5,910 bases of DNA from a virus (Duplodnaviria > Heunggongvirae > Uroviricota > Caudoviricetes): IMG/VR virus record IMGVR_UViG_2531839237_000018; one strand, written 5' to 3'. The notes beneath the pieces are model-generated. The model had not been told where the DNA came from. It was given only the letters and a program-made list of their open reading frames with translations, and searched no databases. Shown here piece by piece: positions 1-3,344 of the stretch. Numbering within the stretch: the stretch's first letter is position 1; every line of letters begins with the position of its first letter. The position numbers and the translations under genes were made by a program.

Positions 1-1044
1 CAGGGTCATGTCCGGGTATTCCTTCTGACCCAGCGCATTTTTACGCATGGACAGTGCCAGGGCATTGGTGCTGGACATCAGCCAGACCGCACCGGTGGGC
101 TGCAGGTTTGCTGCCACAAACTGTCCAAACGCAGCCTCGGCATCCGCATCCGGGTTACCGGTTGATGCCGTGCCCTTCACATCATGGGTGATGGACGCCG
201 GGGAGACATCTGCCACTGCGGCTTTTTTCGGGTCCACAAAGTCTGTATCCAGACGCGCCACCACCGCTTCCGCCAGCGCATTACGGACCAGTGCATCAGC
301 AGCCGGACTGGAAAAACGGATCAATTCTTCCGTCAGTACCGCAATGGCCGACACCTTCGCATGACTGAAGGTGATGGATTCAAAATCAAACTTCGTCAGG
401 GGTTTTGCCTTACCCTCACCCACCCAGCCGGCAGCACCGCCGGACACCTGGGCGTGCACACGGATATTGAATGGCACCTGACGAAGTGCAGGGATCCCGC
501 CCTGACCAAATCGCCCGATAATGGTCTGCGGACGCAGGTAATCAATAAAGTCCTGTGCGTATTCCTGATATTCAGACAGGCTGCCTGCCCACTGCGGATC
601 CGTGGTGGTCCCCGCGCCCACTGCCGATTTCAGGACATGATGCAGACGACTGTCATCCGGATACTGACGACGGGCCACTTCCAGGGCTTCAGATCGGACG
701 CCTTTAGCCGCAGCCAGCGATTTGGCAAAGCGGGCGAAGCCAATCCCCTTATCCAGTTTCTGCTCCACACGGATCACCGGCGCAGAAGCCACCGCGGCCA
801 CATTCCCGTTACCGGCCTGTTTCACCGGCTGCGCCGTGGCGGCCTTACCGGCTTCCAGTTCACGCAGGCGCTTCAGGTGCGCATCCACCTGACGGATTTC
901 CGCTGCGGTGTTGTCGTAATGCTCTTCCTCCTCCACATCCAGCGTGCGCCCTTCCTCTGCGGCTTTGGTCATGACCTCCTCAAGGGAGGCTGCCAGCGCT
1001 GCACGCTTGTTTTCAAAACTTTTAATCTGTTCGCCAATATTCAT
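1..1044 (-). CDS. HK97-fold major capsid protein (partial; C-terminal end lies beyond the window start)
   Basis: Hand translation of the minus strand from ATG at 1044..1042 gives an open frame to position 1 (348 codons); it is absent from the ORF track because no stop lies in the window. It begins MNIGEQIKSFENKRAALAASLEEVMTKAAEEGRTLDVEEEEHYDNTAAEIRQVDAHLKRLRELE (charged coiled-coil, delta/scaffold-like N-terminus) and the in-window part ends ...AVWLMSSTNALALSMRKNALGQKEYPDMTL. The start overlaps the protease stop (TAATG) and AGGAAAAGA lies just upstream. Position directly after a prohead protease fits an HK97-type capsid gene. Confidence 0.85.
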   Translation of the reverse strand, partial: MNIGEQIKSFENKRAALAASLEEVMTKAAEEGRTLDVEEEEHYDNTAAEIRQVDAHLKRLRELEAGKAATAQPVKQAGNGNVAAVASAPVIRVEQKLDKGIGFARFAKSLAAAKGVRSEALEVARRQYPDDSRLHHVLKSAVGAGTTTDPQWAGSLSEYQEYAQDFIDYLRPQTIIGRFGQGGIPALRQVPFNIRVHAQVSGGAAGWVGEGKAKPLTKFDFESITFSHAKVSAIAVLTEELIRFSSPAADALVRNALAEAVVARLDTDFVDPKKAAVADVSPASITHDVKGTASTGNPDADAEAAFGQFVAANLQPTGAVWLMSSTNALALSMRKNALGQKEYPDMTL

Positions 1045-1619
1045 TATGGTCTTTTCCTTATGAAAAACGGTTGTTGACTGTGCCGCAGCGCCGGCAGAAG
1101 ATGCGATTTCACCACCGGTTTCCGGTTGCCGGACGCGGCAGAAAACGGGCGGTCGTAAGATTTAATGGTCCGGATGGTGCATTCCGCATTCGCGGGCACG
1201 GTGACGGCAGACACCTCCATCAGTTCCCAGCGCAGAAAATGCAGTCCGCCTCCGTCCAGAAAGGTGTATTCATGGGGACGGAAGCCCACGGACAGCCCCC
1301 TGACCAGCCCGGTCTTAATGGCCGCCCAGACCTCATCCAGCCGGGCAGCCAGTTGCGACGGCATATCCGGTACGGGCTTCACCAGTGTTGCCGTGATTTC
1401 CAGCCCTTCGCTGACCCGGCGCACCGTACACTGCCCCACCGGGCGGGAATGGTCATGCTGCCAGAGAAACGGGATCGCACTGCCAAACTCCGCGCCCTCC
1501 GGCTCCAGGATGTCACCATCCCGATCCGGAGAAGGCGTTGACGCAATCCCGGTGATCACCCGTTCATCCTCACTGAAGGATTTCACCGTCAGCAGGGAAC
1601 AGGCCCGTTTAAGAGTCAC
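1044..1619 (-). CDS. HK97-family prohead maturation protease (S78-like)
   Basis: 191-aa ORF with family-typical blocks: ITGIASTPSPDRDGDILEPEGAEF, FLWQHDHSRPVG, GLSVGFRP, EVSAVTVPANAECTI. GTG start at 1619 preceded by AGGAGG with a 5-nt spacer. Stop overlaps the capsid start. Confidence 0.82.
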   Translation of the reverse strand: MTLKRACSLLTVKSFSEDERVITGIASTPSPDRDGDILEPEGAEFGSAIPFLWQHDHSRPVGQCTVRRVSEGLEITATLVKPVPDMPSQLAARLDEVWAAIKTGLVRGLSVGFRPHEYTFLDGGGLHFLRWELMEVSAVTVPANAECTIRTIKSYDRPFSAASGNRKPVVKSHLLPALRHSQQPFFIRKRP

Positions 1620-1630
1620 ATCAGCCTCCT

Positions 1631-1657
1631 GAAAATAAAAAAACCGCCGCAGCGGTT
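1631..1657 (-). terminator. Candidate intrinsic terminator/attenuator between terL and the protease gene (minus strand)
   Basis: On the minus strand: AACCGC-TGCG-GCGGTT hairpin (1657..1642) followed by TTTTTATTTT, then the protease SD AGGAGG. Short stem, so strength is uncertain. Confidence 0.4.
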
Positions 1658-1682
1658 CATGATGGTTACAGTGTGAACAGGG

Positions 1683-3344
1683 TTATATGAAAAAAACCGC
1701 ATATTCTTTCTTTTTCGGTTCCGGGTTAAGGGACATCAGGGAGACCGCATTGAACAGCGCCATCAGCGGGTCAATTTTTCCCCGTCCACTGGCCTGTTTG
1801 GTGATAAGAATGGCGTTACCTTTAGGCTCCACCCGGGCATTGCCGACACACCAGGCCATCAGGGGCTGGTCACCATGCACCAGCACCCCTTCAGCCAGTT
1901 TGCGCTCGGTGGTTTTAATGGCCCCGCCCAGTTTCCAGCCCTGGCTTATCCCCACCACAATTCCGTCGGGGATCCCGGCTTCCGCCAGTGAATCCAGAAT
2001 CTGCCCCACCCCTGACGGGTCAATACCGATATGGTCCAGTAACTCAGCCTCATGAATGCGACGCACATATTCCGCCACTTCCGCCGTGTCATCCCCGACA
2101 CGCCGGACAATGGTCATATCTCCACAGGCAACAAGATCCTGAAACCGGGACGCCTCGCTCTTCCGTCGGACCACCGCGGTTTCATGCGCCCAGGCATGGC
2201 CCCAGCCCAGCCATTCGCGGGTTTCCCTGTCACGGCCAATCACGTACATTCCCAGCAGATCATCCAGGCCCCCGCCGTCAATCCCCACCGTCACCACATC
2301 AGCGCGCTGCAGGATATCGTCCAGGCTGACGCGCCTGCCCTGCTGCTCCCAGAAATCCGCACCCGCCCAGCGGTCAGAACGCAGGGCAAGACCAATTTCC
2401 ACATTGGCATGTTTTGACATGAAGCCACGAAATGCTTCCTCACCAGCCTCCCGGGCTTTACGGTACTCCCGGTACAGAAAAGCCTCATCCACCGAATAAC
2501 CGAGATTCGGGTTAACCATGGCGAGGTTTTCCATCAGCAGGTGAGCCCCGCTTTCCACCATTTCAGGAGGATGCTCAAAAATCACCGGCAGAAAGTGCGG
2601 ATCATGAATTTTGCCGTCACGGACATCCCGGGCGTACTGCAGTTTCTGTCTGAACACCCCGGCTGGCGGCTCATTCGACTGGGTGGTCGTATACACCACA
2701 AACCCTTCCGGGCGGGAGGCAAGGCCGCCTATGGCTTCACGTAACATGTCCTCCGCTTTGTACTGCTTGCCAAATAACCACAGTTCATCAATCAGCGTCC
2801 CCACGGACTTGATACCGGATACCGTATTCGGATCGGCAGCCACCACCTTCAGGGTGGTGTCCGTCACCCTGTGGGTGATGGTCCGGATATGTGTCTGCAC
2901 CTGACAGAGGTCATCCAGATCATCGTCCCGTCGTACCATATCCCTGGCAGGGTTGAAGGCGTTAGCCGCCACCTCCACGGTCGGGGCCAGAATGGTGTAG
3001 CCCGCCGCCTGCCGCCAGTTCAGTAACAGCGCCGTCATCATGATCCCGGCAGCCAGCGTGGACTTGCTGTTTTTCTTGGGGATAAGGATAAAAACTTCCT
3101 TGATATGGCGTACACCGGTCTGCGCATCGTAGGAGCCAAACAGGGCCGCCACCAGGTCAAACACCCACTGTGCGCAGGACTCCCCGAACGTCGGGCTGCC
3201 CGGTGCATCCACAATCCGCAGTTGTTTAAAAATCGCCAGGGCATGTGCGGCCTGCTCCGGATAAATCGGAGCCGGAATAATCGACAGCCCCTTTTTCAGG
3301 CGCTCTGCCCAGTCCGGGCAGGCCGTGCTCCACACAGGTATCAT
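1683..3344 (-). CDS. terL: Terminase large subunit (COG4626/Terminase_1-like ATPase-nuclease)
   Basis: 553-aa ORF. Walker A-like FILIPKKNSKST near the N-terminal third; nuclease-domain-like VTVGIDGGGLDD, IGIDPSGVG and GKIDPLMALFNAV blocks. ATG start overlaps the terS stop (ATGA at 3341..3344). Confidence 0.9.
   Translation of the reverse strand: MIPVWSTACPDWAERLKKGLSIIPAPIYPEQAAHALAIFKQLRIVDAPGSPTFGESCAQWVFDLVAALFGSYDAQTGVRHIKEVFILIPKKNSKSTLAAGIMMTALLLNWRQAAGYTILAPTVEVAANAFNPARDMVRRDDDLDDLCQVQTHIRTITHRVTDTTLKVVAADPNTVSGIKSVGTLIDELWLFGKQYKAEDMLREAIGGLASRPEGFVVYTTTQSNEPPAGVFRQKLQYARDVRDGKIHDPHFLPVIFEHPPEMVESGAHLLMENLAMVNPNLGYSVDEAFLYREYRKAREAGEEAFRGFMSKHANVEIGLALRSDRWAGADFWEQQGRRVSLDDILQRADVVTVGIDGGGLDDLLGMYVIGRDRETREWLGWGHAWAHETAVVRRKSEASRFQDLVACGDMTIVRRVGDDTAEVAEYVRRIHEAELLDHIGIDPSGVGQILDSLAEAGIPDGIVVGISQGWKLGGAIKTTERKLAEGVLVHGDQPLMAWCVGNARVEPKGNAILITKQASGRGKIDPLMALFNAVSLMSLNPEPKKKEYAVFFI

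Follow-up and report, generated by a model that had tools for sequence, protein, structure and literature searches.

Packaging and head genes in the window

The DNA considered here is a stretch of 5,910 nucleotides from a Caudoviricetes record of IMG/VR (IMGVR_UViG_2531839237_000018), which as a whole is called the window, and the question addressed is where the portal gene belongs in the head module that it carries. Genes were called from the list of open reading frames (ORFs) together with a Pfam search of the window proteins, and the packaging and head genes HNH, terS, terL, protease and capsid are all found on the minus strand of the ORF list. The gene of the large terminase subunit, terL (positions 1683-3344, minus strand), encodes 553 amino acids (aa), matches Pfam TerL_ATPase (2e-11) and TerL_nuclease (4e-10) as well as terL families of PHROG, and belongs to the PF03354 type. 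It is followed by the prohead serine protease part (1044-1619, minus strand), a 191-aa ORF with a GTG start that is of the S78, HK97 gp4 type (Pfam Peptidase_S78, 2.5e-9, residues 48-152). The major capsid protein part (1-1044, minus strand) is a stop-free frame with a match to Pfam Phage_capsid (2.4e-8); it has the HK97 fold with an N-terminal coiled-coil, delta-like region, and from its ATG at 1044-1042 the frame runs off the start of the window.

Positions 1-5842 are 99.9% identical to lambdoid prophages of Escherichia coli O157:H7, for example Sakai Sp6 and the prophage of strain F7386, and the window has matches in 241 phage records and in more than 5,000 E. coli records. Judged by this similarity, what the window holds of the late operon of a lambdoid, siphophage-type E. 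coli O157 prophage (Sakai Sp6 / Pankowvirus type) is its packaging and head part. Only two substitutions separate it from strain F7386 (positions 4018 and 4080), both of them in the intergenic region between terS and HNH.

The earlier note on this DNA pointed out that terL and the protease gene have no portal gene between them, and this observation stands. The spacer between the two genes consists of 63 bp (1620-1682) and holds, on the minus strand, only a terminator-like hairpin (1641-1658; stem GAACCGC-TGCG-GCGGTTT), a T-run (approximately 1631-1640) and the Shine-Dalgarno motif AGGAGG (1625-1630), which is located 5 nt before the GTG of the protease, all three read directly from the sequence. 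None of the window proteins matches a Pfam portal family. With this 63-bp gap the window does not follow the canonical HK97 order, which is terL, portal, protease, capsid.

The hairpin in the spacer is thermodynamically unexceptional (fold z = -0.7), and only its conservation is notable: hairpin, T-run and GGAGG are kept in the relatives from Salmonella, Serratia and Pantoea, with one compensatory change in the stem (A:T to C:G). Attenuation, transcript stability and the ratio of terminase to capsid expression are possibilities for its role.

Position of the portal gene in related phages

In close relatives the genes are arranged in the order HNH, terS, terL, a 645-aa protease-capsid gene, a 73-aa ORF, the portal gene (833-859 aa) and a connector gene, after which come the genes for head closure, a gp10-like protein, tail completion and the major tail protein. 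The part of this order that the window itself covers, from HNH to capsid, matches the relatives exactly. The portal ORF of the relatives is recognised by Pfam Phage_portal (PF04860; E = 5.9e-81, residues 54-382). When the coordinates of strain F7386 are transferred by alignment, the capsid gene would continue for about 318 nt past position 1 of the window, and the portal gene would begin about 530 bp and end about 3,100 bp past it.

The block from terL to portal is contiguous in 91 of the 94 matching phage records, among them 2851, YYZ-2008, 1717, BP-4795 and phi330, and the same holds for 1,243 of the 5,426 complete genomes of E. coli. Several of the phage records that carry the block belong to the genus Pankowvirus, and the nucleotide identity of the Pankowvirus records to the window over this block is 93-100%. 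The contig collection has the exact terL protein in 4,582 blocks, and the downstream layout is the same at all of the places listed (10/10). Beyond E. coli, the same order was found in prophages of Salmonella, Serratia and Pantoea (74-77% identity of the fusion protein), in Salmonella phage FSL SP-016 (77%), in Pseudomonas phage PAJU2 (48%), whose record labels the gene 'prohead protease fused capsid protein', in Rhizobium phage RHph_X2_26, and in phages of Burkholderia, Moraxella and Stenotrophomonas. A survey of species-representative genomes covered 40 loci from alpha-, beta- and gamma-proteobacteria, 36 of them with enough downstream sequence; a homologue of the portal follows the capsid gene in all of the informative loci (36/36), and a portal between terL and protease occurs in none of the loci surveyed. 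Since the order is the same across close and distant relatives, the arrangement is old and lineage-wide and not the result of recent remodelling. The order with the portal after the capsid is already known: public records carry it in their annotation, and it has been remarked on in published work.

Two explanations had been offered in the earlier note for the missing portal gene, namely that it lies downstream of the capsid gene beyond the window start, or that the module was remodelled or suffered a deletion, leaving an element that depends on a helper or is defective in its portal. The first is what is seen in every relative, from prophages that are 99.9% identical down to phages of other proteobacterial classes with about 35-50% protein identity. 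The second is unsupported. The order is old, conserved and lineage-wide, and phages that have it are able to form virions and to lysogenise. The comparison of synteny thus places the portal soon after the capsid gene in an order common to a functional phage group, which is the observation that the note had named as contrary to its suspicion of an abnormal module. From these alignments we consider it very probable that the portal gene of this element lies just outside the window, about 530 bp past position 1, and that its gene order is normal for the lineage. The head module of the lineage runs from HNH, terS and terL through the protease fused to capsid and a small ORF to the portal, and continues with a protein of 300-470 aa (sometimes fused to the portal), the connector, head closure, the gp10-like protein and the tail genes.

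Two considerations weigh against this placement. First, the portal is positioned past position 1, outside the window, by alignment to relatives; second, the other end of this copy is rearranged, and a second rearrangement on the portal side is possible. Nevertheless, it is highly improbable that the portal was lost by deletion or recombination and that the element is helper-dependent in the manner of a satellite, or defective, for that reason. Such a loss would agree with the lack of a portal between terL and protease, with the other lesions carried by the window copy, and with the scoring of Sakai Sp6 as defective for portal and head functions (Asadulghani et al., PMC2669165). However, the terL-protease junction, with its spacer of 58-63 bp and its kept hairpin and Shine-Dalgarno motif, is ancestral to the lineage as a whole, every relative carries the portal after the capsid gene, and no trace of a deletion scar was seen. 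The close relatives are prophages of 45-60 kb with a portal and full tail modules, and the window contains no satellite hallmark genes.

Phages with this arrangement have been characterised as particles and as prophages. The Pankowvirus phiSTEC799-Stx2c was induced and imaged, which revealed a prolate head and a long non-contractile tail, and it lysogenised MG1655 (PMC12029490); its prophage in strain STEC799 has the same terL-capsid-portal layout as the other relatives. Among the Sakai prophages, the head-region gene organisation of Sp6, Sp9, Sp10 and Sp12 has been described as slightly different, Sp10 keeps all morphogenesis genes, and marked Sp10 and Sp6 transfer to K-12 (Asadulghani et al., PMC2669165).

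The portal of the relatives itself presents in two forms, which were read at the loci L003 (4892-7471), L001 (8887-11471), L124 (29193-31777) and L125 (9140-11535). It is either one protein of 833-859 aa, or a portal of about 450 aa with a separate protein of 300-470 aa, whose gene shares 4 nt (ATGA) with the portal gene. In the prophage of phiSTEC799-Stx2c, a functional phage, the annotation calls the split form 'frameshifted'; the same form is seen in most of the distant relatives examined. Neither the C-terminal half of the 859-aa ORF nor the separate 300-470-aa protein has a sequence match in Pfam or the PDB; in PHROG, the matches of the C-terminal half are of unknown function or labelled 'portal protein'. 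The coding region of this second, portal-linked protein contains internal DNA repeats with an offset of about 160 nt.

A private frameshift in the protease-capsid fusion gene

Protease and capsid were taken for two genes in the earlier note. This holds for the ORFs of the window, which are separate, and does not hold for the close relatives, in which one gene encodes both proteins; a frameshift private to the window splits this gene. The relatives' gene is a single fusion of 645 aa that reads through the segment ...NRKPVVKIASSAGAAAQSTTVFHKEKTIMNIGEQ... without interruption. Its homologues number 2,494; the listed ones mostly have a length of about 645 aa, contain both Pfam domains and are distributed over many enterobacterial genera. 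The capsid part of the window is identical to residues 193-540 of this fusion protein, and in the protease part the His and Ser of the motifs WQHDH and GLS(V/I)GF are invariant in the alignment.

The ORFs are separate in the window because a single nucleotide is deleted at 1107-1109 (gene on the minus strand), where the homopolymer is T3 on the plus strand, or A3 on the coding strand, compared with four bases in the relatives. The resulting frameshift ends the protease ORF 21 codons later, its last 21 residues being out of frame, and the protease stop codon TAA (1046-1044) overlaps the capsid ATG (1044-1042) in the sequence TAATG (1042-1046, minus strand). The best match of the three-base form in the 5,426 complete E. 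coli genomes is 99.0%, compared with matches of 100% for the four-base form. Exact-pattern scans gave no match to the three-base form in IMG/VR, where the four-base form has 119, and none in the species representatives of GTDB or in the JGI metagenomes; an exact-protein look-up found no identical copy of the 191-aa protease. The window therefore lacks the single fused 645-aa gene of the Sp6-type lineage, and all other copies searched in E. coli and IMG/VR are fused. Going by these comparisons, the split would be either a private lesion or a sequencing error in a homopolymer.

Two candidates were tried and rejected in this context. A programmed frameshift at the A-run is contradicted by the relatives, all of which have the fused frame as their zero frame, and a canonical slippery heptamer is absent. 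A fusion described in a CBASS preprint does not serve as precedent, as it joins scaffold and protease and not protease and capsid; the papers on MD8 and Ab31 have no bearing on the question either.

It could also be considered that the split arrangement is a functional, unfused variant comparable to the separate protease and capsid genes of relatives from Moraxella, Burkholderia and Rhodobacterales, in which the TAATG overlap would give translational coupling. On the one hand, in about 10 of the 37 loci surveyed the genes are separate and the capsid ATG is at exactly this position, some of these loci have overlaps of the ATGA type, and the window combines a Shine-Dalgarno motif with its TAATG overlap. 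On the other hand, none of the more than 1,250 E. coli genomes that carry the gene shares the variant, and the shifted tail of 21 residues is unrelated to the C-terminal tails of naturally separate proteases. A C-terminal tail of that kind reportedly targets the HK97 protease into proheads (the observation is ascribed to Duda and co-workers, 2013), which was counted against a functional split. Taken together, a functional variant of this kind is improbable.

Damage to the region is seen in other O157 prophage copies with an identical terL. In one of these (L180, 9663-11700) a deletion of 29 nt frameshifts the capsid gene, and the protease-capsid gene is therefore one that decays naturally. In another (L182, 6900-8000) Mu-like com/mom genes precede terL in the place of terS.

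The Rz-yphB junction and the state of this copy

Identity to the prophages stops at position 5842, inside Rz/Rz1. The phage-derived sequence ends there with a 3' fragment of the spanin genes Rz and Rz1 (5662-5842, minus strand), as assigned by annotation transfer from Sakai Sp6, and it adjoins an internal fragment of the chromosomal gene yphB, which encodes an aldose 1-epimerase (5832-5910, minus strand; 100% match to the single-copy yphB of 5,214 genomes). Positions 5836-5910 match this internal part of yphB at 100%, and at the junction (5832-5842) Rz and yphB share a microhomology of 11 bp, GCAGGTGGCGT. On the minus strand the yphB frame continues in frame into the tail of Rz1. The junction was found in none of the 5,426 complete E. 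coli genomes, the IMG/VR contigs or the JGI metagenome contigs.

As the phage DNA ends in Rz, the remainder of the lysis cassette, the late promoter and the early genes are no longer connected with the packaging and head genes in this sequence; the complete lysis cassette and the Q-dependent late promoter that characterise Sp6-type prophages upstream of the packaging genes are not found in the window. The spanin genes had been regarded as an argument for a phage, and this argument is weak, considering that Rz/Rz1 is represented by its 3' part only, which is joined to yphB. The junction is due either to illegitimate recombination (a deletion or an inversion) or to a chimeric sequence, and the window copy is correspondingly a prophage that was damaged or rearranged, or else a sequence with imperfections. 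It may be defective for reasons that are unrelated to the portal.

It is possible, though rather unlikely, that both the one-nucleotide deletion and the Rz-yphB junction are errors of sequencing or assembly, and that the real element is an ordinary, intact or nearly intact Sp6-type prophage with a fused gene. The deletion is located in a homopolymer, a classic site of error, and both anomalies are absent from the 5,426 complete genomes, from IMG/VR and from the JGI metagenomes, the deletion being absent from the GTDB representatives as well. Against this stand the 11-bp microhomology, which is shorter than the k-mers of assemblers and typical of real illegitimate recombination, and the natural O157 copies, which carry lesions in the capsid gene (the 29-nt deletion in L180) and show rearranged contexts (com/mom before terL in L182).

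A conserved internal start signal in the fused gene

The gene is fused in about 27 of the 37 surveyed loci and separate in about 10, the latter coming from Moraxella, Acinetobacter, Psychrobacter, some Burkholderiales and some Rhodobacterales. The capsid ATG of the separate genes aligns exactly with Met193 of the fusion. This internal ATG is kept in 26 of the 27 fused loci, and the 27th has TTG in its place. A purine-rich, Shine-Dalgarno-like motif 6-10 nt before the internal ATG is kept as well, while the residues of the linker that it encodes vary (KEK, KGN, KGK, TGN, QEGN); in the window this motif is AAGGA (1055-1059, minus strand; read from the sequence), 10 nt upstream of the ATG. The predicted duplex with the anti-Shine-Dalgarno sequence at the internal ATG reaches -4.3 kcal/mol or stronger in 26 of 26 fused loci and -5.3 or stronger in 25 of 26, compared with about 15% of the control positions (other in-frame ATGs and arbitrary codons of the same genes) that reach such duplex strength. 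The signal is found from E. coli to phages of Pseudomonas, Rhizobiales and Burkholderiales.

The Shine-Dalgarno motif and the ATG that are kept at the start of the capsid part suggest nested translation. As the N-terminal part of an extended capsid protein, the S78 protease would be carried into the prohead by co-assembly, and the fused gene would probably give free capsid protein as well, through the internal Shine-Dalgarno motif and ATG; after assembly the protease would cut away itself and the coiled-coil region, as in HK97. It is proposed that the fused gene is nested in this way, the full-length product tethering the protease into the prohead and the start at Met193 providing most of the free capsid protein, so that the ratio of protease to capsid would be set in translation. 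We regard the chances of this proposal as evenly balanced. Within it, the internal start signal is the retained start of a capsid gene that was once separate.

Some caution is required by the data on which the proposal is built. The loci with the Shine-Dalgarno motif are phylogenetically related, and the statistic given above accordingly overstates their independence and carries no formal probability, although several bacterial orders are spanned. Furthermore, we infer internal initiation and delivery of the protease by co-assembly from the conservation of sequence. If the nested reading is true, the frameshift of the window would remove only the tether and leave capsid synthesis intact, and the window protease, with its nonsense tail of 21 residues, would be untethered and probably fail to be encapsidated.

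Relation to known head modules

The closest known systems are the Pankowvirus phages (2851, YYZ-2008, 1717, WGPS6/8 and phi330) and the Sakai prophages Sp6, Sp9, Sp10 and Sp12, which have the same gene order and an identical terL-protease spacer, and which are 93-100% identical to the window in nucleotide sequence over HNH, terS, terL, protease-capsid and portal. The window differs from them in its own one-nucleotide deletion, by which the fusion is split, and in the end of its phage DNA in Rz at yphB. PAJU2 and FSL SP-016 have the same terS, terL, fused protease-capsid gene, small ORF or ORFs, portal, unknown protein and adaptor, whereas their hosts and early regions are other than those of the window, and their fusion gene is without the frameshift.

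HK97, with the head module order terS, terL, portal, protease gp4, capsid gp5, shares with this lineage the families of terL (PF03354/PF20441), of the S78 protease, of the coiled-coil HK97-type capsid protein and of the portal (PF04860); both also have a gp6-like connector, a gp10-like protein and an HNH gene beside the terminase. Three differences set the lineage apart from HK97: the portal gene is located after the capsid gene and not before the protease gene, the protease is fused to the capsid protein, and there is an extra protein of 300-470 aa after the portal or fused to it.

In phage lambda the nested C/Nu3 genes produce protease and scaffold from one reading frame. The fused gene discussed here may resemble C/Nu3, in that an in-frame internal start in an ORF containing the protease would supply an abundant assembly protein; unlike in lambda, the nested product would be the capsid protein and not a scaffold, and no homology is claimed. 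In the actinobacteriophage clusters EE, AU and AW, 'major capsid and protease fusion protein' is a standard annotation for the same fusion of domains; these phages have unrelated hosts, and the likeness is one of annotation.

Neighbouring features of the window

The gene of the small terminase subunit, terS (3341-3904, minus strand; Pfam Terminase_2), overlaps terL by 4 nt. The HNH endonuclease gene (4194-4559, minus strand; Pfam HNH) adjoins the terminase genes, a position that is kept in the relatives; an HNH gene beside the terminase genes is typical of HK97-type cos packaging modules. A gene of the DUF3950 / YnfO family is located on the opposite strand at 4601-4786, and it is followed by a stretch of low GC content (38% GC, approximately 4750-5250) with very small ORFs only.

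Implications

The absence of a portal gene between terL and protease is expected in this lineage and gives no evidence for a satellite or for a portal-less element. Scan rules that are built on the order of HK97 and lambda would raise false alarms in about one quarter of E. coli genomes (1,243 of 5,426). The frameshift and the Rz-yphB junction, in turn, flag the window copy as damaged or mis-sequenced. For the family as a whole, the internal start signal in the protease-capsid fusions offers a testable hypothesis for how the dose of protease may be set.

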